Shown in pieces: positions 43,975 through 61,691 of a stretch of DNA of 64,000 bases. Below the pieces are notes generated by a model. It ran no database searches, was not told where the DNA came from, and saw only the letters and a list, made by a program, of their open reading frames with translations. Origin of the DNA: Spirochaetia bacterium. Lineage in GTDB: Bacteria > Spirochaetota > Spirochaetia > DSM-27196 > Salinispiraceae. The translations under genes and the position numbers were made by a program. Position 1 is the stretch's first letter; every line of letters starts with the position of its first letter. The DNA is taken from contig JBBRCZ010000002.1 in assembly GCA_038204425.1 (NCBI GenBank), forward strand, positions 64,001 to 128,000, written 5' to 3'.

Positions 43975-44535
43975 ATGGCCAAAAAATCTGGCTGGAGTTT
44001 GCGTGACATTGTGGTCATGGCAGTAGTGGCAGTGTCGCTCGGTGTTTTGTGGTGGGCATGGACCGCCATTTACAGTCTAGCCGAAGGACCGCTCAAAGCA
44101 ATTCACCCCGGACTGAGTTATCTGCTTGTTGGGGTGTGGTTTACTGGCGGAACCATAATTCCATTTTTAATCAGAAGACCGGGGTCTGCCCTGCTAGGCG
44201 AGGTGCTCGCGGCCGGAGTTCAAGGGCTAATTACTCAATGGGGTTGGACCAGCTTGGTCTGGGGACTCGTGCAAGGAGGCGCAGCGGAACTAGCCTTTGC
44301 CAGCGGCTGCTACAAACACTACGGCTGGCCAACCTTTGCTTTTGCCGGGTTTCTTTCCGGCGCCGCAAGCTACACCATAGACTTCTTTTGGTATCGCTAT
44401 GGTGACACCTACAGTCTGGAAACCTGTCTCGTGCAGGCGCTGGCTTGTATGGTCTCGGGAATAGTCTTCGGTGGACTACTGGGTCGAACAGTTGGCCTTT
44501 CTCTATCAAAAACAGGTCTTGCTTCCAAGGCATGA
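43975..44535 (+). CDS. ykoE: ECF transporter S component, YkoE-type (thiamine/HMP)
   Basis: WSLRDIVV, GVWF, IRRPGSALLGE, GLVQGGAAEL; downstream of the TPP riboswitch. Confidence 0.88.
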   Translation: MAKKSGWSLRDIVVMAVVAVSLGVLWWAWTAIYSLAEGPLKAIHPGLSYLLVGVWFTGGTIIPFLIRRPGSALLGEVLAAGVQGLITQWGWTSLVWGLVQGGAAELAFASGCYKHYGWPTFAFAGFLSGAASYTIDFFWYRYGDTYSLETCLVQALACMVSGIVFGGLLGRTVGLSLSKTGLASKA

Positions 44536-46649
44536 CTACCAAGCCCGTACTGCTGCTTACTGACGCGCAACTTAGCCGTTGCACACGGTCGCTGATTAGT
44601 GTCGATAAATTTAGTGTCGCCACTGGGGAGCGCGTGCTTGTGACGGGCCGCTCAGGTTGCGGCAAGTCGAGCTTTTTGCTGGCCTTGGCCGGCATGGTAC
44701 CGGAATATGTTGATGCCCAACTATCAGGTAGCTGGCAGCTTAGTTCGTCAGTTGGGCTAGTTTTTCAGAATCCTTGGTCTCAGATGGTGTGCCCGACAGT
44801 TGAGGACGAAATAGCCTTTGCCCTAGAAAACCGAGGAATGGATGTCAAGACCATACGCTTGCGAGTCGACTCGGTTTTGGAATCCTTGCACATGACCAAG
44901 CTTGCCCACAGGAAGCCTTGGACGCTTTCTGGCGGCGAATGCCAAAAGGTTGCAATTGCAGCCGCCATTGCTCAAGAACCGCAGCTGCTTTTGCTCGATG
45001 AGTGCCTCAGCTATCTAGACAGCCAAGCTGCGGAAGAACTTATAGAATTAGTTGCCAGTCTGCCAGCGCAGATGGCCATAGTGATTGTTGACCACCAACC
45101 TTGGCGCTGGAAGGCGATAGTACGCAAAAGCTATCAAATAGACCAAGACGGCGTCCTAAAAAGTGTCCCTAACTGGCAATCGGCACCGCAACAAGCACCA
45201 CATCACCATTTAGCAAGTCTTGTTCAAGGCCAGACTATGCTCGAGCTGCACGAGGTGGATGCTGTCTACAAGCGTCGTGAGCCAGGACAAGATGAGCAAA
45301 CTGGGCACGTCAACAACTTGGTTCTATCTAAATTCAATTTAAGCCTCAAACAAGGGCAAAGCCTCGCCATAACGGGGCCATCTGGATCGGGCAAAACCAC
45401 CGTACTGCGCCTGCTGACGGGTGTACTAAAACCACAGGCTGGCAACGTCAATGTCCCCAAGGCCATGATTTATGTGCCACAAAACCCCGAGCATTTTTTT
45501 GTTTATCAAAGCGCCGCTGAGGAATGGCAAGGTGCAGAAGATCTTGCTCAGACTTTTGGACTTACTGCACTGGCCAATCGCCACCCCTTTACGCTTAGTG
45601 AGGGCGAAAAAAGGCGACTTACGCTTTGTGCCGCGCTTTCTAGCGCTCGCAAACGGCAACAAGATCTAGTCTTGCTCTTGGACGAACCAAGTTACGGCCT
45701 TGACGCTGCCAGTCTCAATGCCTTTGTACAAGCTATTGAACAGCTGCAAGCAAACGGCTTGAGCATGATTATGGTCAGTCACGACCTATCATTGTGCAGA
45801 CGTTTGGCCGACCAGATTATTGATCTCAAAATTCGCAATCAACCTGCTGTCGACAGTCAAATCTCACTCAAGTCTTCTAGACAGGGCATCTGCAATTTGG
45901 GCGCCAAGATCAATCCCCTAGCGCTGTTTTTGGTAAATTTTTTCTCGCTGATGCCGGTTATGCTTTCACTTGATTACTATGTGCCTGTTTTGATGACCTG
46001 CTTGAGCGTGGTCACTATAGTAGTGTTTCGGCCGCGAGCACTATCGTCTTGGCTGGCGGCCTCGTCTCTGATTGTGCTGGCTAGCTTTTGGGTTTTTCTT
46101 GCCACCGCTGGCTATGGAACTAGCCAAACAGGCCAGATTGTTCAGTTTTTGTGGATTGTTAAACCCAGTAGTGCCTTTGACAAAGCCTTAGTGCTTGCCA
46201 TGCGTAGTGCCGCTATGGCCATGATTTCTTTTTCGTTTGTTTTGATCGTCGACTTAGCTGAGCTTACGCGCTCGCTTATGGTGCAATGGAGATTGTCGCC
46301 GCGTTTTGGCTTTGCGCTTTTTACGGCGCTCAATATTTTGCCGCGTTTGCGCCAAGAACAAAAAACTATCGCCGTTGTGCACCGCATGCGAAGTGGCAGA
46401 CGATTAAATAAGCTTTTGCCTCAAGCCATTGCTTTGTTGGCCGGTGCCATCCGGCATGCCGAGCGCGCAGCTCTTTCTATGGCGCAACGCGGTTTGGAGA
46501 AACAAGCCGACCTTGGACCGCAGCGCAGTTTTTTGTCGGCTAAGGATTGGTCAAGTATCGATACAAGTACAGTGATTGTAGCTCTCTCTTTGATTGCCAG
46601 CAGTGTTTCCATTCTGCTGGCATCGGGATTGTTTAGGTTTGCTTGGTAA
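44532..46649 (+). CDS. ECF transporter double ATPase fused to the transmembrane T component (YkoD-YkoC-like)
   Basis: Two Walker A motifs (GRSGCGKS, GPSGSGKT), LSGGE and LSEGEKRR, followed by an EcfT-like TM domain ending ALSMAQRG. Confidence 0.85.
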   Translation: MTTKPVLLLTDAQLSRCTRSLISVDKFSVATGERVLVTGRSGCGKSSFLLALAGMVPEYVDAQLSGSWQLSSSVGLVFQNPWSQMVCPTVEDEIAFALENRGMDVKTIRLRVDSVLESLHMTKLAHRKPWTLSGGECQKVAIAAAIAQEPQLLLLDECLSYLDSQAAEELIELVASLPAQMAIVIVDHQPWRWKAIVRKSYQIDQDGVLKSVPNWQSAPQQAPHHHLASLVQGQTMLELHEVDAVYKRREPGQDEQTGHVNNLVLSKFNLSLKQGQSLAITGPSGSGKTTVLRLLTGVLKPQAGNVNVPKAMIYVPQNPEHFFVYQSAAEEWQGAEDLAQTFGLTALANRHPFTLSEGEKRRLTLCAALSSARKRQQDLVLLLDEPSYGLDAASLNAFVQAIEQLQANGLSMIMVSHDLSLCRRLADQIIDLKIRNQPAVDSQISLKSSRQGICNLGAKINPLALFLVNFFSLMPVMLSLDYYVPVLMTCLSVVTIVVFRPRALSSWLAASSLIVLASFWVFLATAGYGTSQTGQIVQFLWIVKPSSAFDKALVLAMRSAAMAMISFSFVLIVDLAELTRSLMVQWRLSPRFGFALFTALNILPRLRQEQKTIAVVHRMRSGRRLNKLLPQAIALLAGAIRHAERAALSMAQRGLEKQADLGPQRSFLSAKDWSSIDTSTVIVALSLIASSVSILLASGLFRFAW

Positions 46650-46655
46650 GTGAGC

Positions 46656-47282
46656 CTAGAGATTAGGCTTGGGTGTTTTGACCAAGTAGATCGCTGGCAA
46701 GCTCAGCAAGGTAACGGCAAACTTTACAGCCAAATTGATCAAGAAAATCTGAGCAACTATTTCGAGTGGAAGACCTGGGCTTCCAGGGAGGTCAATTGCA
46801 AAGGCCAAGGTGCAAAAAATTAGATTATCCAGTGGAATTGCTACACTGTTTGAGGCAAGCACTCCTAACCATTGTCGCTTTTCGCCAAAGCGCGCCCTCA
46901 GGCGATGGTAGACCTCAGTGTCCGAGAGTTCAGCTACCAGTTCGGCAATGATGCTGGCAAGCACAATGCGCCAGACTGGTCCCAAAACCTTGTCCCATTC
47001 TGTACCAAGTCCCCACTGAGGATCGGAGCCGACCAAAGTCGTAAATCCTAGGTACAAGGCCATCAATAAATTTACGGCGGCGGCACTAATAATGAGGGTT
47101 TGAGCGGCCTTTTTTCCTAGTGCTTTATGAACCAGATCGCGCAGGGTAAAGGTAATTGGGTACAAAAATGTACCCAAGTCTACCGCCAAACCGGCAAGCA
47201 GGCCAATCTTTAAACTGGCAATATCGGAGACCATCTGAGCGCCCAAGTAGGCACTAATGAGAACAATAGCAGAAACTGACAT
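46656..47282 (-). CDS. yhhQ: Queuosine precursor transporter (VUT/YhhQ family)
   Basis: SDIASLK, GTFLYPITFTLRD, RIVLASIIA, SN...LDN..F; preQ1-like leader. Confidence 0.88.
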   Translation of the reverse strand: MSVSAIVLISAYLGAQMVSDIASLKIGLLAGLAVDLGTFLYPITFTLRDLVHKALGKKAAQTLIISAAAVNLLMALYLGFTTLVGSDPQWGLGTEWDKVLGPVWRIVLASIIAELVAELSDTEVYHRLRARFGEKRQWLGVLASNSVAIPLDNLIFCTLAFAIDLPGSPGLPLEIVAQIFLINLAVKFAVTLLSLPAIYLVKTPKPNL

Positions 47283-47288
47283 AAAGAG

Positions 47289-47355
47289 TCCTTGTTTTGT
47301 TGAGGCGGGTGGCAGCAGGCCAGATGACCGAGCATCAAGCCAAAAAACGACCGCC
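47289..47355 (-). ncRNA. preQ1-I-like riboswitch aptamer 2 (RBS-proximal)
   Basis: RNA GGCGG-UCGUUU-[insert]-CAC-CCGCC-UCAACAAAACAAGGA: P1 GGCGG/CCGCC, with an A-rich tail running into the SD. Confidence 0.7.
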
Positions 47356-47403
47356 GCAGTTTTTTATCCGGGTGGCGACAAGCTGTCGCGCGCTGCTACC
47401 GGT
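47356..47403 (-). ncRNA. preQ1-I-like riboswitch aptamer 1
   Basis: RNA CCGG-UAGCAG-CGC-[GCGACA-GCU-UGUCGC]-CAC-CCGG-AUAAAAAA-CUGC: P1, pseudoknot GCAG/CUGC and an AUAAAAAAC tail. Confidence 0.72.
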
Positions 47404-48551: not shown

Positions 48552-49523
48552 ATGAAAGCGATAGTCTATAGTGCCTACGGGAGCCCCGAAGTACTAAAGC
48601 TCAAAGAACTTGAGAAGCCGGCACCCAATCAAGAGCAGGTATTGGTCAAAATTGCTTACGCCTCAATCAATTCAGCAGACGCCAAACTAATGAGGGGCAA
48701 GCCTTTTTTGGCCCGTATGGCAGTCGGTGGTTTGCGAAAACCAAAAAAACAGATACTTGGTTCTGACATGGCAGGAACCATAGAAGCGCTGGGCGCCAAG
48801 GTGAGCCAGTTTAAACTCGGCGATAAAGTCTTTGGTGATCTAAGCGCAGCTGGATTTGCAACCTTTGCCGAGTATATTTGTATAGATGCAAAGCACTTGT
48901 CGCTAATTCCTGCCGGTGTATCCATGCAAGAGGCTGCAGCGGCGCCCATGGCTGCAGTCTGCGCCCTACAGGCCCTCAAGAAAGCTGGTGTCAAACCCGG
49001 CGATATGGTCTTAATCAACGGTGCCTCTGGTGGCGTGGGCATGTACGCCGTCCAGATTGCCAAAACAATCGGTGCCAAGGTAACGGCCGTCGGCTCCAGC
49101 GCAAAACAGCCTTTCTTGCAAACTATCGGCGCTGACGCAACTATTGATTATCAGAAGCAAGATCTGTTTAGCGCTACTCAATCCTACAACCATATAATCG
49201 ATGCGGCAGCCTATTGGCCGTTCAAAAAGTTTGCACCCTTGTTAAAGCCCAAGGGGCGCTATGTCTTGGTGGGTGGCTCAACTGCACTGCTCTTTGCATG
49301 CATGCTCAAAGGACCTTTTTTCTCAATGTTTTCTGGCAAAAAATACCTGACGCTTATGGCCCAAGCAAAAAAACAAGACCTCAACTATGTAGCTGAGCTT
49401 TTGCAAGCCAAAAAAATCGCCGCCCATATTGATAAAGTTTACCCATTGGCTCAATTGCCACAGGCCATGCACGATTTAGAAGAACGCAAACACCGCGGAA
49501 AACTCTTGATAGAGATGGTTTAA
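48552..49523 (+). CDS. NAD(P)-dependent alcohol dehydrogenase / quinone reductase (MDR family)
   Basis: MKAIVYSAYGSPEVL, LGSDMAG, INGASGGVG, GKL. Confidence 0.92.
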   Translation: MKAIVYSAYGSPEVLKLKELEKPAPNQEQVLVKIAYASINSADAKLMRGKPFLARMAVGGLRKPKKQILGSDMAGTIEALGAKVSQFKLGDKVFGDLSAAGFATFAEYICIDAKHLSLIPAGVSMQEAAAAPMAAVCALQALKKAGVKPGDMVLINGASGGVGMYAVQIAKTIGAKVTAVGSSAKQPFLQTIGADATIDYQKQDLFSATQSYNHIIDAAAYWPFKKFAPLLKPKGRYVLVGGSTALLFACMLKGPFFSMFSGKKYLTLMAQAKKQDLNYVAELLQAKKIAAHIDKVYPLAQLPQAMHDLEERKHRGKLLIEMV

Positions 49524-49556
49524 AAACGCAAGCAATCAAGCACCGTTAGCGCCGGG

Positions 49557-49967
49557 CTAGATTGCTTTGCCACATTGGAAGCATTCACGCCTATAACTAG
49601 AATTTTCTGCGCCGCATGAGGAACATTTTACGGCTGCAATACCGCTGACGGTTGATCTGGAGTTTGGTCTCGGCGCAGCAGGCACATGCGGCGCTCTGAC
49701 TGGTTCTTCTAACTTTATAGCTTCTGTACTATCTATACTGTCCTTAACTGAGTCTGGTTCTTGTTCCTTGTGAACGTTTGCAAGGCCGGTCGTGTCGGTG
49801 CTAACACCGCCTAGACCCACATTGACATTTATAGTTTGACGACCTGCTCGTTCATCTTCAGAAAACGACTGCCGACTCGATTGGGTAGGCTTTGTTCGCA
49901 GAAGTTGCAATTGCACGACAATAATTACGAGAAGTAAGAGGCAAGCGACCTGAAAAAACACATCCAT
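49557..49967 (-). CDS. Membrane-anchored protein with a C-terminal zinc ribbon
   Basis: N-terminal TM; CSSCGAEN...CFQCG. Confidence 0.75.
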   Translation of the reverse strand: MDVFFQVACLLLLVIIVVQLQLLRTKPTQSSRQSFSEDERAGRQTINVNVGLGGVSTDTTGLANVHKEQEPDSVKDSIDSTEAIKLEEPVRAPHVPAAPRPNSRSTVSGIAAVKCSSCGAENSSYRRECFQCGKAI

Positions 49968-50105
49968 AGCAGTCATTATAAGCCGGACATCGGGCTTTGT
50001 CTTAGTCAACTCTCATTTATTGCGCTTGGCAAACCGATAATATTTTTGGTAGACCAACACTTTGCTAGATCTACACTAAAGAGCACTGGAGACTATGTTT
50101 AAACT

Positions 50106-50864
50106 ATGAAGCCAAAGCAGCTCACCGAAATGTCTGATGAGGAAGTGCTCCTTCAAGAAAACATGAATCTTATCGCCACAGGACTCTTTGCCTGCCAAAC
50201 CGAAGAACAAGTAGATCTTGCGGTAAGTTTTGCTCGTTATCTTAGTTCCAACGGACTTACCCGCAGCAACTATTCTTTGTTTTTACGCTTGATTGCTAGC
50301 AACAACCATTGGGTAGTGGACAGTTTAATCGGTGAGCGCCAAGCTCGATTGATGTTTGCCTCTATTCCCCCCAGTACCTCTTTGATCAAAGACGCCTTTT
50401 CGGTGCTCTCCTTCTTTCATTCAGACATAATCTACCAAAAGACCCTTGAGGCGGCTTTGGGTGTCATTCAAATGGCTTACTACGACCCTGACGACGGCTA
50501 CAATATTTACAAACTGCGCATCTCAGATATCAATACCCTTGGAAAATACCTTGAGAAGGACAAAGAACAGGGCCAGCCCATTAACGCTCTAGTCTTGGAA
50601 ATTTTGGATAGATTGAGCGGAATTGGCGACTACAACAAAGTACCTGCTAAAAACGTCTTAGCGCGCCATTCGTTCTATGTTCGTATTGCATATTTTGACC
50701 ACAGAAAAAATCTCGAAGACGTAATTCCACAAGTTTTGCTCTATAATGCAAGTAGGCGTAAGGTAGTGACCAACCCAAGTCAAATCTATCGAGAAGCCCT
50801 CAAGCGCGAGCAAGCAGGTTCCGCCAAGGTTAAGGCAGGCACTGCGGGCACAAAGGAAGATTGA
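50106..50864 (+). CDS. Unknown helical protein, paralogue 1 of 4
   Basis: Aligns by eye end to end with the ORFs at 53021, 53735 and 54519 (NY.lF, N.wV.D, IY.KTL, DGY.IY, N.LGK.L, ILD, R..yFD, IPqVLL). Confidence 0.85.
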   Translation: MKPKQLTEMSDEEVLLQENMNLIATGLFACQTEEQVDLAVSFARYLSSNGLTRSNYSLFLRLIASNNHWVVDSLIGERQARLMFASIPPSTSLIKDAFSVLSFFHSDIIYQKTLEAALGVIQMAYYDPDDGYNIYKLRISDINTLGKYLEKDKEQGQPINALVLEILDRLSGIGDYNKVPAKNVLARHSFYVRIAYFDHRKNLEDVIPQVLLYNASRRKVVTNPSQIYREALKREQAGSAKVKAGTAGTKED

Positions 50865-51784
50865 TGAGCCAAGCAAGTGAGCAAGAACTACGATCCCTTG
50901 AAGCCGTTATAAAAAACATCCAAGACTATCCGTATCGCATCAAAACCAAAGATGGCAAGCCTGGCGGTCTAATTGAGCTGCCAGAAACGATAGTTCCGAT
51001 TGTAGTCGGTGACTTACATACCGCTCTGGACAATTTAAAAGCCATTTTGAAGCACGATGACAATCATGCCAAGGTTCGCTCTGGAGAACGTACGCTTGTT
51101 TTTATTGGTGACATTATCCACAGTGACCAAACCGGCTTTATGAAAGACATGACAAGTTCGGTAGAGATTTTTACCTATATAATTGAAATCATGGCCGAAC
51201 GCCCCAAGGGGTTTATCTATTTAAAAGGTAACCATGACACCTTTGACGATCGACTAGTCAAAAGCGGCATTCTGCAAGGCAAAGAGTTTCGCAAAACACT
51301 AATTGAACAAAAAGGTCAAGCTTACACCGAAGCCGTAGAACAGCTATTTGATACCTTGCCACTTTTTATCAAAGGCAACGGCTTCATAATTACGCACGCT
51401 GGCCCGATTCGTGGTGGCAGTACGCGCGACGAGTTGATCAATATAAGAGACTATCCCGACAAACTGCATCAGTTGCTTTGGAATCGCGCTCATGAATTTC
51501 GCGGAACGCCTAGTCCAAAAGAATATGATGGAAAGGATATTGACGCAACTCTTGCAAAGCTGGGCATGAAGGACGATACTTTGTTTATTGTTGGGCATAA
51601 TCCTTTGTGGGGCACCGGAGAAAAGACGGGCATTTGGATGAATGTGACTGATATTCTCAATCACCACATTATTGTATCTAGTCCGGGCACACTCGCACCG
51701 TATTTCCTAATCCAGGATCAAAAACTGGAAGCCCGTTTTGCTAATGGCATTCAGAAAGAGGAACGGTACCACTATGGTGAATGA
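50861..51784 (+). CDS. Calcineurin-like metallophosphoesterase (PPP Ser/Thr phosphatase-like)
   Basis: VGDLH, IGDIIH, KGNHD, THAG, LLWNR, VGH; start overlaps the upstream stop. Confidence 0.9.
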   Translation: MMSQASEQELRSLEAVIKNIQDYPYRIKTKDGKPGGLIELPETIVPIVVGDLHTALDNLKAILKHDDNHAKVRSGERTLVFIGDIIHSDQTGFMKDMTSSVEIFTYIIEIMAERPKGFIYLKGNHDTFDDRLVKSGILQGKEFRKTLIEQKGQAYTEAVEQLFDTLPLFIKGNGFIITHAGPIRGGSTRDELINIRDYPDKLHQLLWNRAHEFRGTPSPKEYDGKDIDATLAKLGMKDDTLFIVGHNPLWGTGEKTGIWMNVTDILNHHIIVSSPGTLAPYFLIQDQKLEARFANGIQKEERYHYGE

Positions 51785-52697
51785 ACAGAGCAGCCTGATA
51801 TCGATTGTACATGACCAAGATCTGATAGACTATTTTTACTTACAAAAGCCACTCGATGAACTAGTCGACATAATTGAGGGTCTGACCTTTAGCAAGTGTG
51901 GCAACTGTCACGACATTCCTTTTAATGCCTCAGTCAAAGGCTACCTCGGTGCAGTGGACAATAATGACCAAGCCTGGATTGTTAAACCAATCATTGGCGA
52001 AAAAGACACACTTTATCATCGCATAACTCAATTGGTGTACCTGTTGGATTTTCAGATGGCCACCCTTTCAACCCCTACCATGGTGTTAACCATCGATGGA
52101 AAAAAATATCGCGGTGCCAAAGTAGTGCCTAACTGCATCCAAATTTCCAGCTATGATTATTTAAAACAACCTTTTCTAAACATACTTACCAAGGATCTGA
52201 TAAATCGATGGCTTCAGTTTGATGAAGACCGCAATCCCAACAACTACATGGTGCTCAGAAACTCCAAAGACTATCCTTTGGTGGTGGCAATCGATTTTGA
52301 CAAGTCCGACTTAGAAAGTGAAGAAAATAAAATCGTAGGCACCGATGACAAGTTTGGCTGGATTCGGCACGAAAAGAACCGCTATCTTACCATGCTTAAG
52401 ACAGAAAACTTTGATAGGGTACCGCTTTCCGTCTTCGAAAAAAGACTTGAGCTAATGATGGCAATCGACCTTACCAAATTTGGATCCATAGCCACACGAC
52501 TCTTAGAAGGCTATTGTCCAGACCCTAAGGCTAAGGCACAGCAGATTATGGCCAATATCAAAAAGCGTAGAGAGTACATAAATAGCTACTTCCGAAAGTG
52601 GTTTAACGACCAAGACCAAGGCGCCATAAAAAAAGAAGAAGACGCCTACTCAGAAATGGGCGCCACCTTTATGAAAATGTATCGCAACAGCAAATAA
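51774..52697 (+). CDS. Atypical kinase, HipA/PI3-4-kinase-like fold
   Basis: WIVK (beta3 Lys), DEDRNPNNYMV (DRxxxN catalytic loop), VAIDFD (Mg-binding); overlaps the phosphatase stop. Confidence 0.75.
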   Translation: MVNEQSSLISIVHDQDLIDYFYLQKPLDELVDIIEGLTFSKCGNCHDIPFNASVKGYLGAVDNNDQAWIVKPIIGEKDTLYHRITQLVYLLDFQMATLSTPTMVLTIDGKKYRGAKVVPNCIQISSYDYLKQPFLNILTKDLINRWLQFDEDRNPNNYMVLRNSKDYPLVVAIDFDKSDLESEENKIVGTDDKFGWIRHEKNRYLTMLKTENFDRVPLSVFEKRLELMMAIDLTKFGSIATRLLEGYCPDPKAKAQQIMANIKKRREYINSYFRKWFNDQDQGAIKKEEDAYSEMGATFMKMYRNSK

Positions 52698-52896
52698 ACC
52701 TTTAACTCAGTAGACATAGTTATCCTCAAAATTCTGCATAACTGTTGGTCTTTTTTGGCAGCCCGTTGTGAGACCTGGACTTTGGTTTTTTTTTCAATTT
52801 GGTCGTTAACTGATTTATAGGCAATAATTTACAAAATGATTTACTGCGCTAAATATGAGTGTTGTCGTCATGTATTATAACTTAATCAAAAAATAT

Positions 52897-52925
52897 TTGA
52901 CAAGCAGTTTTTGGAGCACTAAGCT
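52897..52925 (+). promoter_or_regulatory. Sigma70 promoter for paralogues 2-4
   Basis: TTGACA-N17-TAAGCT within an AT-rich 323-bp intergenic region. Confidence 0.65.
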
Positions 52926-53020
52926 GGAGATATGCAGTACTTAAGCGAAGATATTGTTAACTCCTAGCTTGGCTAATGGAAAAAATACTTTCGCTCAACT
53001 ATCGTCACAAGGAGGAATAG

Positions 53021-53719
53021 ATGGACAAGCAGACAGAAAAAATTATCGAACTGCAATGGTCCAAAGAGTCGATCATGGAAGTCGAAATCCAAATATTGGA
53101 AAACATGATTGGATGTCGAACGGTCGAAGCAGTTGAGGCCGCGGTTAGTTATGCGCGTTTCTTACACCTTTCCGGTTTGAACAACGACAACTATCCGTTG
53201 TTTCTTAAACTTCTAGAAGTTGAGAACCATTGGGTCATCGATGCCATGCTCGGACAAAAAGACCCATTTTTGTTATTGAGCCCTATCCAGCCCAACAACT
53301 ACCTGATTCAGCAAGACTTTAAGTTGCTGACCAAGTGGCACCCCGGTGGAATATATCCTAAGACTCTTGCTATCGTTTTGGGTATATTGCAGGCTGCATA
53401 CGCCTCGGCTAAAGACGGTAACAAGATCTATAAGGTCAGTATCAATGATGCCAACAATCTAGCCAAACATCTCAACAAGGAAACTGGCCAAGAAGATCCC
53501 AATAATCGTTGTATCCTTGACATTTTGGACCGACTTGGTTCTTTGGCCGGTGCTACTACCGACAACGAGATAGAGCAAATGGCTCGTCAAACCAACAGTA
53601 TTAGAACATTCTTTTTTGATAAGCGAAAGAAAATGGAAGATATTATTCCTCAAGTTCTCTTGGTTAAGTCGGACTACATCGCCAAAGAAACAGTTCCTGA
53701 AAAACTATTTGTGAATTAA
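53021..53719 (+). CDS. Unknown helical protein, paralogue 2 of 4
   Basis: Strong SD AAGGAGGA; shares the family motifs. Confidence 0.88.
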   Translation: MDKQTEKIIELQWSKESIMEVEIQILENMIGCRTVEAVEAAVSYARFLHLSGLNNDNYPLFLKLLEVENHWVIDAMLGQKDPFLLLSPIQPNNYLIQQDFKLLTKWHPGGIYPKTLAIVLGILQAAYASAKDGNKIYKVSINDANNLAKHLNKETGQEDPNNRCILDILDRLGSLAGATTDNEIEQMARQTNSIRTFFFDKRKKMEDIIPQVLLVKSDYIAKETVPEKLFVN

Positions 53720-53734
53720 GAAAGGAGGTACAAA

Positions 53735-54451
53735 ATGGTTGAGCTTTACGAAAAAAAAGAATCGTGGAATAACGAACAGATCTTTCAGATTGAATACAGC
53801 CTGTTAAAAGGCATAATGGGTTGCCGAACTACCGAAGCGGTAGAGGCATCAATGACCTACTCCAGCTTTCTCAACAGTGTAGGTATCACCAATGCCAACT
53901 ACCCTATATTTCTGAAGGTACTCACAACTAGGAACCATCACGTCATAGATTCCCTGCTCGGAACCCGTGACCCGTTCTTGTTTATGAGCTCCATTCAGCC
54001 AAACTACTTTATTGTAGCCACCTGTTTTAGCATACTTGCCAAGTATCTTAAGGGCGAAATATACCCAAAAACGCTTGGAATCATCCTTGGCGTGTTTCAG
54101 GCAACTTTTAATACGCCCCTTGACGGCTACAAAATTTACCCGCCTACTATAGCTGATATTAATAGTCTGGGTAAACACTTGGTAGAAGAAAAGGGTCAAG
54201 ACGACCTACTCAATCGCAGTATTCTGGACATTCTCGACAAAATGAGTGCACTTGAAGGACTTAATGTTGACGAAGATATGGAAGATCTTGCGGTGCATAG
54301 CCACAACATCCGAAACAACTTTTTCGATTCGGCTAAGAGGCTAGTAGAGGTGATACCGGAAGTATTGTTGCGCACCGAGCCCAACATGGAAAAAGATGTT
54401 GAGCCACGACGACAGGTTCCGACAGCTGAAGCTGATAAAGTTGCTGAATAG
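53735..54451 (+). CDS. Unknown helical protein, paralogue 3 of 4
   Basis: Strong SD AAGGAGGT; shares the family motifs. Confidence 0.88.
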   Translation: MVELYEKKESWNNEQIFQIEYSLLKGIMGCRTTEAVEASMTYSSFLNSVGITNANYPIFLKVLTTRNHHVIDSLLGTRDPFLFMSSIQPNYFIVATCFSILAKYLKGEIYPKTLGIILGVFQATFNTPLDGYKIYPPTIADINSLGKHLVEEKGQDDLLNRSILDILDKMSALEGLNVDEDMEDLAVHSHNIRNNFFDSAKRLVEVIPEVLLRTEPNMEKDVEPRRQVPTAEADKVAE

Positions 54452-54472
54452 GCAGTTTTGAGAGCACAGTGA

Positions 54473-54494
54473 CCTGGCGGTCAAAACCGCCAGG
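54473..54494. other. GC-rich intergenic stem-loop without a U-tract
   Basis: CCTGGCGGT-CAAA-ACCGCCAGG, a perfect 9-bp stem. Confidence 0.75.
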
Positions 54495-54518
54495 CGGTAT
54501 CCCTTTCAGGAGATAGAT

Positions 54519-55223
54519 ATGGCTGTACCAAACAAAGAGTTAGACAGAAATGAGCACGGCTGGCCCAAGGAAGAGATTGATGCTCTCGAGCTGACTGTCT
54601 TGAAAGAGATAATTGCTTGCAAAGAAGGTTGGGGCGTTAGTGCTGCTATGCGCTTTGCTTCATATATGAGCAAAAAAGTTGGCTTAAACTCCGACAACTA
54701 CCCAATTTTCTTTGACCTCATTGAGACAGGAAACAAATTTGTAATTGATACGCTCACCAAAGATGCCGCCCCCGAAACCTATTTTAAGGCAATTCAACCA
54801 AACGGCTTTATGATAGGAGAGTGTCTGCGAATGCTAACGTATTGGCAGTCTGGGGCGGTCTATGCCAAGAGCCTTCAGATCATATTTGGAATCCTAAAGC
54901 AGACCTATGAGAGTGCCACTGACGGCTATCGCTTGTACAAAATCGATATTCCTGAGGTCAATAACCTTGGTAAGCATCTGGACAAAGAAAAAGATCAGCG
55001 TGATCCGGTAAACCGCATCATCTTGTATATTTTAGACAAGATTGCTGGTCTTGTTGAGCCAGGTCAAGAAATTAGTGATCAAGCCTTGCTGGATGTTGCT
55101 ACCCAAGCAAATCACATTCGGGGTAAGTTCTTGGATCTTGACAAGACTCTCAACGAAGCTATTCCAGACTTGCTCTTGATTAAGGGTGACCTTACTCGAG
55201 TAGATATTGCTCCCTTAGAATAA
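54519..55223 (+). CDS. Unknown helical protein, paralogue 4 of 4
   Basis: SD CAGGAG; shares the family motifs. Confidence 0.88.
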   Translation: MAVPNKELDRNEHGWPKEEIDALELTVLKEIIACKEGWGVSAAMRFASYMSKKVGLNSDNYPIFFDLIETGNKFVIDTLTKDAAPETYFKAIQPNGFMIGECLRMLTYWQSGAVYAKSLQIIFGILKQTYESATDGYRLYKIDIPEVNNLGKHLDKEKDQRDPVNRIILYILDKIAGLVEPGQEISDQALLDVATQANHIRGKFLDLDKTLNEAIPDLLLIKGDLTRVDIAPLE

Positions 55224-55255
55224 ACATTGCTACGATGGAACTACGCTCATTTATG

Positions 55256-55287
55256 AAAGCTGCTTACCAAGGTAGGCAGCTTTTTTT
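55256..55287 (+). terminator. Rho-independent terminator
   Basis: AAAGCTGCTTACC-AA-GGTAGGCAGC-TTTTTTT. Confidence 0.88.
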
Positions 55288-55320
55288 GTCTGTAGTACTG
55301 GAGGTCTTTTAAAAACAGTT

Positions 55321-56994
55321 TTAGCGACTTATGAAAATATCGCGGCTTGGTTGAATAATATCTGGGCTGCTAAGTACTGGATTGAGAACAATAAGTTTTT
55401 TAATAAATGCCTGCCAGCCATCCGCAACAAGTTCTTGAGAACCGCTAAATTTTAGCTCACCTTTTTTAATTGCTTCAAAAAGCACCCACAGACTCTGGCC
55501 ACTTGCCGCCTGCCAAACTTGCCTGCCTTCTATGGTGGCTATCTTTGCTTGCGTGTCATTATCTGGTGGTACATTTTCTATAGTATCAACTTGGTAGTGT
55601 TGGCTAGTTGCCTTCTCCTGAGTGTGATTGTTAAATATAAGCAGTAAAATGAGCACTACAATTGCTGCGCCGACTATCCCCGTGACTAACCAATGCTTGC
55701 GAGAAAAGCGCTGCAAACCAAGGCTATGCGGCACATTGTTCTCAATTTGCTTGCTGCTCGCTATATTTTGCGGTGATTGTGAACGTGTATGTTCTAGAAC
55801 TTCCAAGAGATGGCTGAGTTCTTTGCTCTTGCGATTAAAACTGATCTGATAGCGCTGACGTGTTTTGTTGTCGCCTGGCACAAGTTCGCTTGCGGACAAA
55901 ATATTTGGCTCATTCGCTTGGCCTGGCTGGGCAGGTTCTACTTTCTCAAGTGATTTGTTCTCGGAATCAGTCGAGTCAGCTAGGGCAGAAGCACTGGCAC
56001 TGTCCTCTGACGTTTTGGGCACGTGCATTGATGGGGGCTCAACTTGCTTATCTGAGTTTACTGATAGCGCTGATTTCTTAGCAAGTGGCTCTTGTTGCTT
56101 AAAAGGGTCGAGCTCTGGTGGCAAAGTTTCTTTGATCTGCCCAAGCGCGGCGATGGCCTTATTGGGCGGGACGTGTTTCTTGTTTGATAAAGCACTCACG
56201 GCTCGCAGCAGAGCTTGTTGGGCCCAAAAGTCCTCTTGAGACTGAGCCTCAGCCTGTGGCAGCATGTTCTTCTCGGGGATTAAAGCTTTTTTTGTGCTCA
56301 CATCTTGGTTCCAATCAAAAGCATCTTTGTCTACTTCTTCGTCAACATGGCTGTCCGCCAAAACAGAGGCTTGACGCTTTTCTACGTCCTTAATAACATC
56401 GCTTAGCTCAAGCATTGCTTCCAAGGCAATTTTTTCTATAATCGGAGGTAGCGGTGCATCAATCCGGCTCAAAAGTAAGTAGATAATTGCTCGATTTTGA
56501 TCGTAGAGATTATTACGGCAAAGTAGCTGGATAAGAAACAAGACAACGTTTTCTTTGTCAAAATTTGACTCAAAGAGATTAATTTGCAAGGCCTGATAAA
56601 TTGCTCGGTGGTAAGTCAAAAAAACTCGATCGGTGATCTCTTGGCTGATTTCATAGGGTATAGGCAATTCACCAGAAAAGAAGTGTTTATCAATAAATGC
56701 TCTGTCCCGTTTGGTTAGTTTGCCCGCCAGATGGCTATAGAATAGTTCGGAAATTTCTAGGGCAGGCAGATTGAGGTTGCGAAGACAGACTAAGGAAATT
56801 AGCTTTTCTTCAAGCGTGTCCACTTTGCCAAGGTGCTCAAGTATAATAGTCCTTAGCTGGGCATTGTCTTCAGGGTGCAGTTTAATTTCCAATAAAATAC
56901 GCGACAGTTCGGCTTCGGTTTGGTCACACCACGAATGCAAGCGAGCAAAACGCAGGCATTGCTCGAGTTTGGTGACAAAGGAAGCTTGTTCCAT
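55321..56994 (-). CDS. Single-pass membrane protein: helical N-domain, low-complexity linker, TM, degenerate LysM-like C-terminus
   Basis: TM WLVTGIVGAAIVVLILLLIF; GQSLW...LNPVLSSPDIIQP. Confidence 0.75.
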   Translation of the reverse strand: MEQASFVTKLEQCLRFARLHSWCDQTEAELSRILLEIKLHPEDNAQLRTIILEHLGKVDTLEEKLISLVCLRNLNLPALEISELFYSHLAGKLTKRDRAFIDKHFFSGELPIPYEISQEITDRVFLTYHRAIYQALQINLFESNFDKENVVLFLIQLLCRNNLYDQNRAIIYLLLSRIDAPLPPIIEKIALEAMLELSDVIKDVEKRQASVLADSHVDEEVDKDAFDWNQDVSTKKALIPEKNMLPQAEAQSQEDFWAQQALLRAVSALSNKKHVPPNKAIAALGQIKETLPPELDPFKQQEPLAKKSALSVNSDKQVEPPSMHVPKTSEDSASASALADSTDSENKSLEKVEPAQPGQANEPNILSASELVPGDNKTRQRYQISFNRKSKELSHLLEVLEHTRSQSPQNIASSKQIENNVPHSLGLQRFSRKHWLVTGIVGAAIVVLILLLIFNNHTQEKATSQHYQVDTIENVPPDNDTQAKIATIEGRQVWQAASGQSLWVLFEAIKKGELKFSGSQELVADGWQAFIKKLIVLNPVLSSPDIIQPSRDIFISR

Positions 56995-57232
56995 CTAGAT
57001 GATTCCCCTTAGTCTATAATCGGCATAACAATCGCCAAAGTAAGCTAAGTCACCTACAATTGCTTATAATTATGGAGCAAGTTAGGACAACGTTGGCGGC
57101 CATAGGCTAGTCAAAATGCGAGAATTGCGACCAAAACCAATTTGTTAAAGAAGACAACCTTGAATTCGCTCGTGGCAAAGGTTTTGATCACGACCAAGAA
57201 CCGAGCATCCAACCTTTAAAACTGCTTGAGGC

Positions 57233-58243
57233 TCAATAAAAACGGGCAAGGTCCCATGTCTTGGTGAGTGCATTTCCTTGCAGCATGTGGTTTGCCAATT
57301 CAAGAGCGCACGCTGGTGCATACATAAATCCACGCGCGCCGAGGCCATTTAAAACATACAAGCCACCGTGCTCCGGCACCTTGCCTATAATTGGATTTCT
57401 ATCATCACAAATGGGTCTAACAGCCGAAATGCTGCCTTGCGTTTGCCACGTGCTCTGGTGCTCGTTACCCAAAAGTTCGTCAAGCAATTGCTCTAGCGCA
57501 AGAGCCAAATCTGCGGTTACCTTGGCATCGTCTTGCAGCGACTGTGGCAGTGCCCACTGGTAGTTGGCCCCAAAGCGCCAATGTATGCCTTGTTCATCTT
57601 CAGGAAGCAAGAAATGCTGCAAAAAGACTCCGCCTGGCAAAGCAGCTAATGGTAAATTTGCATTAGTTATCGCAGGCTTGTGACTCGTAAAACCCTCGGG
57701 TCTGGGCTTGCCTGTTTTAATGAGCAGGTATGTGCCGCTGGCCGCCTTCCAGCGAATACGTGACAACAGTGGATCAAACTTGGCTGAGTAACCAGTACAG
57801 AGCACCAGCAAGGGTGCGCTCAGTCCTGCACATTGCCAGCTGCTGCTGTCGCTCACATAAGTGGCCTGCGCGGCCGTGTGCCAGTAACACAAGCGCTTCA
57901 GCTGAGAACGCAGCACGCGCATATTAACCCTTAGGCCCTCAGATTTGACTGACCAAGACTTGTCTTGTTTTGTAAGAAACTCCTGCGTCCTTATACACTC
58001 AGGACTGTGATGGAGATACCATTCACGCGCTTGCAAAAACAAACGTTGCACGAGGCTTTGGTCGCGAGCTTTGCCAAGCAAATAAGGGTGCATCATGGCC
58101 GATGCCACGTCGCTTGCTCCGAGATCTGGGGCACTATCGATAATTGCCACCCGTAGTCCGCGGGTGTTTAATTCCAATGCCAAGCTGCATGATGCAATGC
58201 CGGCGCCAAGAATTAGACAGTCAAACTGGGTTTCATGATTCAT
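57233..58243 (-). CDS. FAD-dependent oxidoreductase (DAO/MnmC C-terminal-like)
   Basis: ILGAGIAS, GAS, VRP..DRNPIIG, NGLGARG; start overlaps the stop of the HEAT-repeat gene. Confidence 0.85.
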   Translation of the reverse strand: MNHETQFDCLILGAGIASCSLALELNTRGLRVAIIDSAPDLGASDVASAMMHPYLLGKARDQSLVQRLFLQAREWYLHHSPECIRTQEFLTKQDKSWSVKSEGLRVNMRVLRSQLKRLCYWHTAAQATYVSDSSSWQCAGLSAPLLVLCTGYSAKFDPLLSRIRWKAASGTYLLIKTGKPRPEGFTSHKPAITNANLPLAALPGGVFLQHFLLPEDEQGIHWRFGANYQWALPQSLQDDAKVTADLALALEQLLDELLGNEHQSTWQTQGSISAVRPICDDRNPIIGKVPEHGGLYVLNGLGARGFMYAPACALELANHMLQGNALTKTWDLARFY

Positions 58244-60678
58244 TGCGAGCGATAAGCTTCTAGAGTTCGAGCGGCCTTTGCTAGCCAAGCATGGGCGTTG
58301 GAATTGCGATCCTCGTTTTGCCAGCCATCGTAGACAGCAATTAGTCTGGCGCTCATGGTTTTTTGCAGAACAGCAGACGGTGTGGTGCTCAAGAGCTCGG
58401 CACAGTTGTTCAAAAGGTGAGCCGCCCAGGCTCTCACACTTGTTGCTGGCGACTTTGCCAAGCTTTCTAGTGCTGGCACAAAGTCTAGACTCGCTTGTTT
58501 TATCATGCTGCTAATTAGCCAGTTTTGTGTTGCTGGAGCATAGGTCCGCATTCTGAGACTGAGAAACAATAGGCTTTGCAGATCCCATTGGCCATCGAGT
58601 AGGCGCGCGTACTCGATGACCCTGAGTTCAGGAGCAAAAAAGGTTTCGCGGTGTAGCTTGACAAAGTCAGCTATCAAAGATGAAGGGTTGGTTTGCTTGC
58701 GCAGCAGATACCAAGCTGCCAAGTAGCGCAGTTCAGAAAATTCCTCTTTTTGGGTGTTTAAAATCTTTTGAGATAAAACTATAACTAGTTGGTCATCGTA
58801 GTTAAATATCGCGCGCATGGCGGCAAGTTCGTTCTCTTCACTAAATTTGTTGCCAAGCCACAAGTCAAAAGATTTGATAAGCACGGGTAGCAGGGTCGCA
58901 TAGCCTTGCTGGACGTTTAGCCGTGCAAGTGCTTCTAAACAGGCATAGTTGAGACTGTCCTCGCGACTTGGATCAATGTTGGCAATTATGGCAGCTATGG
59001 CTGTTTTATCCGCAAATTGAGCCAGAGCGTTAACCGCAAAGAGACGCAAGCTATAGTCGTCGTTGTTGAGACTACGTGGCGTCAAGAGCAGCTCTTTGAG
59101 ATATTGGGTCATGCGCCGGTCACCTATTTGGCTTAGCGACTCAGCCGCTGCGATTCTCAGTGCGATGGGCTCTCGTGAGTTTTTTAGAATTGTAGCTAAA
59201 GCCAGCAATGCACGGGCGTCGCGAATTGTTCCCAATCCTCGGACTGCCAAGATTCTTATAATAGTGTCCTCGTCAGCAAGACCTTGGTTAAAATTGCTGT
59301 ACATAGTGCCTTGGGCAAATCGAACCAAACCTTCCATCACTAAGCGGCGAACCAAGCCGTTAGGGTGGGTGCTGAGGACAGCAATACTGCCAATACTGGT
59401 CTGCCCGCCAACTACAACCGTGGTCTTTATGCTGGGAATCAAACAGGCAATCTGATTGCTGTTTTGTAGCTCAAGGCAAGCCTGCAAAAATTTTTGCTCA
59501 AAAGCAAGACGGCTTGGATTGTTTTCGCTTGCATCGATTGGCAATGACTGTTGTTTGTTCTGGATTAAGTCTTTGTATGCAAAAAAATAGCGATCTTCAA
59601 GCACAGCCGCTGCAAGGCTCGGTCGCTTACTATCAATTGCTGAGAGAAACTCTTGCTCGCTAAGCTTCTCGCCACGTGCACTAGCGCAATAGTAAATCGA
59701 GTAGGCTTCCCAATCATTTGCTGTTTTCGAAAGCTGACTTAGCGGTGGAAACTGCAAGGATGCTTGTCGATTGTTGCCAGGCAATTTGGCCAAAAAAATT
59801 CGACTTATAGCCTTGAGTCTCAAGTTTGAGGAGACTGCCCAAGAGTGCAGATTGGGCTCAAGTCCTTGCCACAGTTTGTCGTTTACCGGACTAGTTTTGG
59901 TAAACGGATTAAATAGATTTGCTTTATCGCTTGCCAAAAGACCCATCAATAGAGTGCTAAATTCGTCCTCACTTGGATTTGCTTCCAAAAAGTCCTTCCA
60001 ATAGATGTCTTCCAACTTGCGAGATGTCCAAGGCAGCAGATTAAGCAGGGCAATCTCGCTTCCGAGAAACTTTTTTTGCAGAGCCCTCAGGCTGGCACTA
60101 TCGTGGTTCTTGTCTTTGATCCACAGTGGCCAACGCATGAGCTCACTAATTAGAAATGCGCGCCCCTCAAAATCAATAGTTTTGGATAGTTGTTCGCTGA
60201 TGGTAACTAGGACTTGCTCTCTATGGGTATTGAGGCCCAAGGGGTTGGTGCTTGTAAGGTTGAGGTGCCTATGCGGAGCGTTTAAATAATAGACAAGAGC
60301 TGATTCCGGATAGTCGCTGAGGCTGTCCAAGAGGGGGACAAGAGCTATGGTGTTGCTTATTTTTTTTGCCAAAGCTGCAACTAGGCTTTGAGCAAGGTTT
60401 TGCCTGATCCGCGGGTTGTCACGTAGATCTTGTACCCAATAAGGCTTGATAGTTTCGACTATCGGTGCCAGAAAATCTGCTCGGGCAAAGTAGCTCTGAT
60501 ACAAAGTCAGGCGCTCACTTGGCTGGGCCTTTTGCAGCCAGGCCGCAAGCTGGTCTTGCTTGTCAAAGGCAGGCAAAAGTGGCTGAGTTTGAGCGCTCAA
60601 TGGGACTATGATCGCCAAAGAAAGGATAACTATGCATGGGGTCAGGCACCGCTTTGCGATGGGTTTATTATTGTTCAT
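58240..60678 (-). CDS. Exported HEAT-repeat protein
   Basis: Signal peptide; IRILAVRGLG, LRIAAAESLSQIGD, LRLFAVNALA. Confidence 0.8.
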   Translation of the reverse strand: MNNNKPIAKRCLTPCIVILSLAIIVPLSAQTQPLLPAFDKQDQLAAWLQKAQPSERLTLYQSYFARADFLAPIVETIKPYWVQDLRDNPRIRQNLAQSLVAALAKKISNTIALVPLLDSLSDYPESALVYYLNAPHRHLNLTSTNPLGLNTHREQVLVTISEQLSKTIDFEGRAFLISELMRWPLWIKDKNHDSASLRALQKKFLGSEIALLNLLPWTSRKLEDIYWKDFLEANPSEDEFSTLLMGLLASDKANLFNPFTKTSPVNDKLWQGLEPNLHSWAVSSNLRLKAISRIFLAKLPGNNRQASLQFPPLSQLSKTANDWEAYSIYYCASARGEKLSEQEFLSAIDSKRPSLAAAVLEDRYFFAYKDLIQNKQQSLPIDASENNPSRLAFEQKFLQACLELQNSNQIACLIPSIKTTVVVGGQTSIGSIAVLSTHPNGLVRRLVMEGLVRFAQGTMYSNFNQGLADEDTIIRILAVRGLGTIRDARALLALATILKNSREPIALRIAAAESLSQIGDRRMTQYLKELLLTPRSLNNDDYSLRLFAVNALAQFADKTAIAAIIANIDPSREDSLNYACLEALARLNVQQGYATLLPVLIKSFDLWLGNKFSEENELAAMRAIFNYDDQLVIVLSQKILNTQKEEFSELRYLAAWYLLRKQTNPSSLIADFVKLHRETFFAPELRVIEYARLLDGQWDLQSLLFLSLRMRTYAPATQNWLISSMIKQASLDFVPALESLAKSPATSVRAWAAHLLNNCAELLSTTPSAVLQKTMSARLIAVYDGWQNEDRNSNAHAWLAKAARTLEAYRSQ

Positions 60679-60779
60679 AGCAAATGCTCCTGTGAGACCA
60701 TTATAGGGTCATAATTTCATACTGCCAAGGCCATAGAATGTACTTGTCAAAGTCAGCATTGCGGTGTTTACTGCTTACA

Positions 60780-61691
60780 ATGAGCCTCGATGATGAAAAA
60801 ACCATTGTTCAAGTTCCCCAGTCCTTGCAAGCACATGAACTAGAAAAATCTCTACAAAAAATAACGGTAGAACTAATTGCTGCCCACAAGGCGGGCAATA
60901 AGCAAGTTCTCTCATTCTACAGTAACAAAGTAGGCATCGATCAAAACAAACTGGCAGAGCACCCTGGCAAACAGTTTATGGCTTTGGTTCAAGTCTATCA
61001 TCCAGACCGCCTGCAGTCGTTTCTCGACCAAATCGCTGTTTGCAGCAAAAATGCAGACCAACAGGGAGTAGAAAAAATTGCCCGGATGCTCAGTCCACGG
61101 GCAAGTAAGGCATCAATAGAATTTGACCCTGCTGACATGGATTTTGGCCCCGGCTATGTCTTTAGGCCAAGGGACTTTGGTTTTGCCGAAGACAAGTGGG
61201 AAGATTTTGATGATCAAGTTAAAGTGCGTACCGAGGCTGGCTATAGGACCAAAAAGACAGTCAGCTTTGTAGAAGCTATTAGACGGGAGTACTTTGGCAA
61301 CCTCGATTTGCAGTTGACCCGCCAGGATCTGGAAGAAATCGATGGCGAACTTGAGCTCTATGATTTAGGCATCGAGGACTTGGAGGGTATACAAATTTGT
61401 CGAAGACTTGAGGGGCTCAATCTATCTTGCAACCAGATTCATGACATCAATCCGCTGCGCTTTTTACGTCACCTTGTATCACTTGATCTCAGCTCCAACC
61501 AAATAGAAGACGCCGACTGCCTAGAGCGGCTAAGCAGGCTAGAAGAACTGGATCTTTCTGACAACTTTATAGACAATGTTGGCTTCCTCAACGAAATGCC
61601 CAAACTGCGCTGTGTTAATTTATCGGGAAACACTATAAAAGACAGCTCAGTTCTTGAGACTCTCAAACAACGCGGTGTTTTGATACTCTAG
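60780..61691 (+). CDS. Leucine-rich repeat protein with N-terminal YHPD motif
   Basis: LNLSCNQIHDI, LDLSSNQIED, LDLSDNFIDN, VNLSGNTI. Confidence 0.85.
   Translation: MSLDDEKTIVQVPQSLQAHELEKSLQKITVELIAAHKAGNKQVLSFYSNKVGIDQNKLAEHPGKQFMALVQVYHPDRLQSFLDQIAVCSKNADQQGVEKIARMLSPRASKASIEFDPADMDFGPGYVFRPRDFGFAEDKWEDFDDQVKVRTEAGYRTKKTVSFVEAIRREYFGNLDLQLTRQDLEEIDGELELYDLGIEDLEGIQICRRLEGLNLSCNQIHDINPLRFLRHLVSLDLSSNQIEDADCLERLSRLEELDLSDNFIDNVGFLNEMPKLRCVNLSGNTIKDSSVLETLKQRGVLIL

Follow-up and report, generated by a model that had tools for sequence, protein, structure and literature searches.

A locus with four paralogous genes, P1, P2, P3 and P4, was analysed in a Spirochaetia bacterium (assembly GCA_038204425.1). 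The window, i.e. the whole stretch of DNA under study, comprises 64,000 nucleotides (nt) of contig JBBRCZ010000002.1. The locus begins with a minus-strand gene for a small protein with a transmembrane (TM) segment and a zinc ribbon. This is followed by P1, a phosphatase gene, a kinase gene, a gap of 323 nt, P2-P3-P4, a terminator and a convergent gene for a membrane protein of 557 amino acids (aa; Table 1). In addition to P1 and the phosphatase gene, the phosphatase and kinase genes overlap. The open reading frames (ORFs) of P1-P4 lie where the original prediction placed them, all on the plus strand. A whole-genome search found exactly four copies of the family.

Table 1. Features of the P1-P4 locus (positions in the window)
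Feature	Position	Strand	Remarks
Small membrane protein, likely accessory	49557-50009	-	N-terminal TM at residue 14, C-terminal C4 zinc ribbon
P1	50106-50864	+	Fast-evolving paralogue; stop overlaps phosphatase start
PPP-like metallophosphatase	50864-51784	+	GDLH, GDxxHxD, GNHD; PF00149 E 2.6e-10
Atypical kinase	51774-52697	+	K71, DEDRNPNNY, IDF/YD; PI4KII/CtkA/Fam20/CotH/HipA-type fold
Promoter of P2-P3-P4, predicted sigma70-type	52897-52925	+	TTGACA-17-TAAGCT
Shine-Dalgarno sequence of P2, strong	53010-53015	+	AGGAGG
P2	53021-53719	+	Slowly evolving core subunit, ARM/HEAT-like solenoid (model)
P3	53735-54451	+	Slowly evolving core subunit, predicted P2 partner
P4	54519-55223	+	Paralogue that evolves faster; found in multi-copy loci of spirochaetes only
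Terminator-like hairpin	55255-55284	+	13-pair stem and T run, between convergent P4 and anchor genes; consensus match only
Bitopic membrane protein, likely envelope anchor	55321-56994	-	557 aa; TM at residue 436

The P1-P4 family and its two types of loci

The four proteins are 31-46% identical in pairs over 187-226 residues (BLASTP, E 1e-38 to 1e-75), and 42 columns of their alignment are invariant. Ten motifs had originally been read in the same order from all copies. Nine are present as written, once each and in this order; the spacing of the tenth was wrong, as it reads Q....N..[IV]L.ILD with four spacer residues, not three. At the DNA level, the sole match among the four genes is one stretch of 34 nt shared by P1 and P3. 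Because similarity is limited to this stretch, the duplications are old, as had been supposed. Neither a Walker A motif (pattern check) nor a coiled coil nor a TM segment (top 19-residue hydropathy 0.92-1.22) was found in P1-P4. This agrees with the original view that signal peptides, TM segments and nucleotide-binding motifs are absent, the first being judged from hydropathy and reading alone.

Searches of Pfam, NCBIfam and PADLOC assigned P1-P4 to no family; P3 matched only Caf4 (E 0.066). In PHROGs, two families were matched, each by one of 150 family members, and a PDB sequence search with the family yielded best E values of 0.09 and 0.1. A profile of the four sequences detected 361 relatives. 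Among 7993 proteins scored with the P2 profile, 1541 were relatives. Relatives form 211 clusters at 50% identity and, where source names were shown, are all called 'hypothetical' or 'uncharacterized'. No fusion to other domains was found among 7996 proteins of 540-2000 aa, which is weak evidence. Listings and abstract beginnings, with most subscription papers outside their coverage, contained no description of the family. Unnamed viral clusters of the ESM Atlas (0.91-0.92, low recognition) and its poor model for P0016 were not used.

The family was detected in 41 of 301 genomes of the class, with 2-9 copies each and never one. In the phylum, 17 of 401 genomes carry it (one marginally), among them a few fragmented assemblies with a single copy. 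None of the four genomes of the same taxonomic family has it. Outside the spirochaetes, it is rare: two of 201 genomes around a Myxococcota carrier and one of 201 around a Desulfobacterota carrier were positive, centres included. Cultured carriers, by source name, are Rarispira pelagica and Spirochaeta cellobiosiphila.

The best 80 of 153 confirmed stretches yielded 79 loci, 80 with the window. Two mutually exclusive types were found. Type I (33 of 80) contains the kinase but no small helical-hairpin protein, and type II (34 of 80) has this hairpin protein but neither the kinase nor P1 nor P4. The remaining 13 loci, many on short contigs, have neither. Type I is found in spirochaetes and consists of two units, P1-phosphatase-kinase and P2-P3-P4, which are oppositely oriented in 11 of 33 loci. 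Gene order is fixed: P1 precedes the phosphatase gene in 28/28 and the phosphatase gene the kinase gene in 32/32 type I loci. P4 directly follows P3 in 34/34 loci, and P3 follows P2 in 71/73. Optional extras of type I are a Hanks-type protein without catalytic motifs (read by eye) and a fifth paralogue of 190 aa. Neither of them, nor the small hairpin protein, was found in the present genome, which is 95.6% complete.

Type II loci comprise P2-P3 and the hairpin gene, are kinase-free and have other partners. Their hosts are Acidobacteriota, Myxococcota, Desulfobacterota and some spirochaetes. In five type II genomes, the kinase was not found elsewhere either. Neighbours are either a receiver with a predicted coiled coil (a cluster in 19 loci) or ParA (10 loci), an anti-sigma kinase, STAS and SpoIIE. 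At L063:7320-8660 and nine similar loci, ParA adjoins a gene that ends in a helical hairpin of 50 residues like that of the small neighbour of P2-P3. This suggests that the hairpin-ended gene product is an adaptor between ParA and the P2-P3 pair. At L062:7690-9771 and related type II loci, a receiver with a charged helical protein (450-1500 aa) is encoded beside P2-P3, presumably reminiscent of AglZ/FrzS of Myxococcus. Three genomes (G431 with locus L098, G587 and G317) have P2-P3 blocks duplicated with identical scores and reach 7-8 copies.

The kinase and the 557 aa membrane protein occur almost only together with the P1-P4 family. The kinase is present as a single copy in 37 of 301 class genomes, 36 of which carry the family, and in the remaining genome its gene contains an internal stop. 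All 31 of the 301 genomes with the membrane protein are carriers. The exceptional kinase homologue (L094:9394-10242, genome G457) is shortened by the stop. No paralogue, phosphatase or membrane protein gene lies in the 20 kb examined, and the gene appears to be a relic of a lost locus.

A FastTree phylogeny of 231 domains was divided into 28 P1, 79 P2, 78 P3 and 34 P4 sequences, a short clade of three and nine unassigned domains. IQ-TREE was applied to 36 of these 231 rows from 12 loci. In type I spirochaete loci, P1-P4 form separate clades with support of 99-100 (P1 100/100, P2 99/100, P3 100/99, P4 100/100). This answers the question, raised with the original prediction, whether there are four orthologous clades. 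Together with the lack of single-copy carriers among the 41 class genomes, it upholds the proposed non-redundancy. Across phyla, FastTree joined P2 (92) and P3 (97), but with IQ-TREE, support for P2 was 62/35 and P3 did not form one clade (two changes). Since IQ-TREE does not support these joins, it is gene order and identity that speak for P2 and P3 being orthologous between phyla. Within type I, median identity amounts to 76% for P2, 78% for P3, 51% for P4 and 46% for P1. Between type I and type II it is 58% for P2 and 52% for P3, compared to 48% for the cross pairing. Identities of 76-78% between spirochaete families and of 52-58% between the types of loci argue for strong selection on something unnamed.

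The expression signals in front of P2 are conserved. Among 31 type I loci (two were skipped for an unclear start), TTGAC is present upstream of P2 in 26 (3.8 expected) and a spaced TAnnnT box in 19 (0.2 expected), and GGAGG was found in all 31 leaders. The P2 promoter of the window itself is below the threshold of a generic promoter scan. In codon usage, P2 is at the 98th percentile of this genome, P1 at the 95th, P3 and P4 at the 82nd, kinase and phosphatase at the 44th and the membrane protein at the 30th; the ribosomal-type reference median is the 98th. This modestly supports abundant subunits and enzymes in catalytic amounts. Of six other genomes, with only 6-31 background genes each, three had a codon usage of P2 or P3 close to that of ribosomal genes, and three did not. 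The GC content of the locus (42-45% versus 46% in the genome) and the adapted codons do not support its recent horizontal arrival. On the RNA side, no holder was listed, and Rfam over 49400-57400 yielded one chance match (E 0.33).

Fold of P2 and the predicted P2-P3 dimer

A P2 model was built from an alignment of 150 sequences. It is all-helical with twelve helices, no strands and a predicted local distance difference test (pLDDT) value of 95, and bears out the helical pattern originally read from P1-P4. The C-terminal tail is extended, folded back and confidently placed. In structural comparisons, the top rows are nearly all armadillo (ARM)/HEAT proteins. The best of them has a Z score of 7.9, which is within the helical-protein background of the tool (root-mean-square deviation (rmsd) 3.9, 164 aligned residues, 12% identity). 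Foldseek with this model found nothing at E<=0.001 in the PDB and viral sets. Like CNOT9 (4cru), MEILB2/HSF2BP (7ldg), adaptins and beta-catenin, the model would be an all-helical solenoid of about 200 residues. It differs from them by the low identity, the fixed length, the folded-back tail and the lack of a sequence or Pfam ARM/HEAT match: Repeat profiles matched none of P1-P4, and among 36 distant members a single one matched HEAT_PSME4_mid, without passing the cut-off. P1-P4 do not show the features of nucleotide-binding cytoskeletal proteins (tubulin/FtsZ, actin/MreB, ParA), as they have no Walker A and the P2 model has no strands.

According to structure prediction, P2 and P3 pair head to head in a pseudo-symmetric heterodimer. 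The complex scored 0.84, the best of three controls 0.00. In calibration, the mark used was attained by 116 of 157 solved pairs and by 2 of 215 mismatched ones; it is roughly applicable to our own alignments. The model has 115-121 contacts, a contact agreement between runs of at least 89% and a partner pLDDT of at least 89. The predicted interface is composed of N-terminal helices (A40/S43/Y44/F47 versus A38/T41/Y42/F45) and the C-terminal tail ends, and 32 of its 36-38 columns are equivalent in both chains. The conserved residues K149, Q157, N162, R195 and D200 fall outside. At one locus (L058:9959-11287), P2 is fused to P3 in a single ORF of 442 aa, with the P2 tail and the first P3 residues lost. 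This locus lacks P1, P4 and the kinase, and the membrane protein gene follows. As an isolated case, it might also result from misassembly.

The original prediction regarded all four paralogues as subunits of one structure. For P2 and P3, the predicted heterodimer supports this. It is not shown for all four, because P1 belongs to a separate unit and 34 loci contain P2+P3 but lack P1 and P4.

The P2-P3 dimers might polymerise into a filament or lattice of a new cytoskeletal or organelle-like kind, either through the C-terminal halves left free or through an exchange of tails. P1 and P4 would then act as caps or nucleators, with assembly under the control of phosphorylation. Conservation is spread over the whole protein beyond the dimer face, and a mainly N-terminal face leaves the five conserved residues named above free. 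The confidently placed tail reaches the N-terminal interface with its end. Strong expression signals, ParA next to a gene with the hairpin in 10 loci that lack the kinase and actin-fragmin kinase among the fold matches of the kinase (Z 11.4) would fit as well. On the other hand, P1-P4 have no nucleotide-binding motif or coiled coil, and the pseudo-two-fold symmetry of the dimer closes its own face. We consider such a polymer unlikely. In its most elaborate and equally doubtful form, it would be a nucleotide-independent armadillo-like polymer or lattice, capped by P1/P4, hooked to the wall via the LysM-like anchor, with kinase and phosphatase controlling both assembly and dissolution. Its two-gene core would have moved between four phyla and acquired another control module on each occasion.

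Kinase, phosphatase and membrane protein

By motifs and profile, the phosphatase is PPP-like. Its best PDB matches are BSU1, PP5, calcineurin and PP2A (best E 3e-8). The motifs are kept in 32-33 of 33 homologues, GDxH and GNH[DE] in all 33. However, GDxxHxD (32/33) replaces GDxxDRG, the canonical PPP motif. A second phosphatase with the motif GDGLHSE is encoded elsewhere in the genome, near a membrane Hanks-type Ser/Thr kinase (G000:C3:99829-105222).

The kinase has no Pfam match, HipA included. Its model (pLDDT 88) yielded Foldseek matches with E about 1e-4. Fold matches with Z 11.8-14.8 comprise PI4KIIalpha (Z 14.8, rmsd 4.0, 231 aligned residues), CtkA (Z 14.0), MavQ (Z 12.7), Fam20, CotH and HipA, i.e. 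both protein and lipid kinases. Across 30 sequences, K71 is kept in at least 90%, and DEDRNPNNY and D174 are invariant. Fold, lysine, D..N loop and metal-binding aspartate assign the protein to the PI4KII/CtkA/CotH/HipA group of atypical kinases.

Conserved Tyr and Thr/Ser residues of P1-P4 had been proposed as phosphosites. This was not borne out: Y58, Y112, T115 and Y137 of P2 are 94-100% conserved in kinase-free loci, too, and the T115 column has S/T in only 82 of 150 family sequences. Among the proposed sites, only T113 of P3, the threonine of YxKT, is kept specifically in kinase loci. Tyr phosphosites are not favoured, since the nearest solved relatives of the phosphatase are Ser/Thr PPP enzymes. 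Ser/Thr residues specific for kinase loci are not clearly more frequent than in the reverse comparison or than residues of other classes (P2 4 versus 3, P3 7 versus 3; D/E 8 versus 5); weak candidates are S217 of P2 and T77, T113 and S199 of P3. Therefore, nothing shows P1-P4 as substrates, and the link to phosphorylation is based on co-inheritance, not on sites.

PP2A-type holoenzymes consist of a PPP catalytic subunit and helical-repeat subunits. By analogy, the paralogues could be regulatory or scaffold subunits of phosphatase and kinase. P1 is located directly upstream of the phosphatase gene in 28/28 loci, the phosphatase is PPP-like and proteins with a predicted solenoid fold are encoded beside it. 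The locus differs from these holoenzymes in being bacterial, in its four or five short paralogues and its own atypical kinase, and in that P2+P3 also occur without the enzymes. This last point argues against the analogy: 34 loci have P2+P3 but no such kinase nearby, nor has any of the five such genomes one elsewhere. In addition, codon usage suggests that the subunits are more highly expressed here than the enzymes. As a whole, this explanation is quite unlikely; it may hold for P1 alone.

With PI4KIIalpha and MavQ among the top kinase matches and GDxxHxD in the phosphatase, both enzymes could also turn over a lipid or small-molecule signal bound by the paralogues. Alternatively, the paralogues could themselves be enzymes with a site around K149, R195 and D200. 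K149 (149/150) and D200 (148/150) are near-invariant polar residues. By contrast, most near-invariant residues are L, I, G and P, a family-wide His or Cys cluster is lacking (C32 in 103/150, H70 in 73/150 sequences), and the best fold matches are protein-binding solenoids. We regard both variants as very unlikely.

The adjoining kinase and phosphatase genes and the envelope-linked partner are reminiscent of PknB/PstP and PrkC/PrpC, bacterial Ser/Thr kinase-phosphatase operons with a Hanks-type kinase and a PP2C phosphatase. However, the kinase of the locus is soluble, has a CtkA/PI4KII/CotH/HipA fold and is not of Hanks type. The phosphatase is PPP-like instead of PP2C, and a Hanks-type pseudokinase is only optional and absent here.

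HipBA and HipBST share the kinase fold (Z 9.4-11.8). No HipB-type DNA-binding antitoxin was recognised at the locus, a HipA Pfam match is lacking, and the conserved accessory set is large. Nevertheless, the locus could act in anti-phage defence or conflict, with a toxic HipA-like kinase that the phosphatase restrains and that is sensed via the paralogues. The patchy spread described above, variable flanks and HipA and HipT among the kinase fold matches would agree with this. Against it, PADLOC 2.0 has no match for P1-P4, phosphatase and membrane protein and only E 0.006 for the kinase. Plasmids and viral contigs contain no match to the family. The 35 other genes scanned in the window yielded housekeeping matches and no integrase or defence match, and a tRNA is absent. 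The very slow evolution and host-adapted codons likewise make a defence function highly improbable.

The 557 aa membrane protein is composed of a conserved N-terminal domain, a long variable linker, one TM and a C-terminal LysM-like domain. A strong TM is present in 11/11 homologues, the N-terminal side usually being more basic, and an F.I.FNR-type motif was found in the linker of 8/11. Its profile matches solved LysM chains, SafA (7r1l, E 3.5e-5) and Kbp (E 0.0046). Pfam LysM (PF01476) reached at best E 0.082, below cut-off, in 2/10 proteins; an insertion splits the motif. The candidate that this protein is a hidden fifth paralogue was rejected (hhalign probability 0.1%). FimV/HubP are bitopic polar landmark proteins with LysM. 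They resemble the membrane protein in the LysM-like outer end and the long cytoplasmic part, and ParA is encoded in some related loci. In contrast to them, it has no FimV family match, its LysM-like domain is C-terminal (opposite order) and its cytoplasmic domain belongs to no known family.

A possible scaffold and its surroundings

The explanation that we favour, tentatively and just short of an even chance, is an abundant scaffold of P2-P3 in which P4 and P1 are minor components. The LysM-like protein would link it to the envelope, and kinase and phosphatase would control it. The head-to-head solenoid heterodimer would be the abundant cytoplasmic scaffold. P4 and P1, which keep similar interface residues, may enter it as minor subunits. 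P1 might bring in the phosphatase and the kinase encoded in its transcription unit. The cytoplasmic domain or the F.I.FNR motif of the membrane protein could bind the solenoids, and its LysM-like end peptidoglycan. Phosphorylation by the co-inherited enzymes would control assembly or position of the scaffold. Tethering, substrates, what P1 and P4 do and any function in the cell are our inferences here.

Several results speak for this scaffold: the dimer score of 0.84 versus 0.00 and the one P2-P3 fusion locus, the higher conservation of P2/P3 (76-78%) than of P1/P4 (46-51%) within type I, the co-occurrence counts, the ribosomal-like codon usage of P2, and the recruitment of other signalling or positioning partners by kinase-free loci. 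Other points weigh against it. Because the carriers are related to each other, their co-occurrence counts are not independent but descriptive. The P2-P3 interface is conserved equally to or less than the rest (0.75 versus 0.75; 0.68 versus 0.73). Close cousins of a true partner may also pass the complex score, and P2+P3 was the sole pair folded. The codon signal is clearly repeated in only three of six other genomes with small backgrounds. The top fold match of the kinase is a lipid kinase, kinase-locus-specific Ser/Thr residues do not exceed background, and the LysM assignment stays below the Pfam cut-off. Furthermore, 10 of the 41 carriers yielded no membrane protein, apart from a weak homologue in one of them.

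Helical-solenoid proteins as fixed orthologous subunits, combined with a kinase, a PPP-like phosphatase and a wall anchor, had no match in the libraries searched. If they form a scaffold or a polymer, this would be a new bacterial structural system and would provide substrates for an orphan atypical kinase.

Among the adjacent genes, the small membrane protein upstream of P1 has zinc-ribbon Pfam matches below cut-off and a homologue in 10 of 80 loci. Near the locus, an 812 aa HEAT-repeat protein with a hydrophobic N-terminus (58240-60678, minus strand) and a 317 aa leucine-rich repeat protein (60738-61691, plus strand) are encoded; these genes do not cluster with genes of related loci. The window further contains a gene for a queuosine-precursor transporter (46656-47403) and one for an ECF-type transporter (44445-46649, plus strand), which combines two ATPase domains and the membrane part in one ORF of 734 aa.

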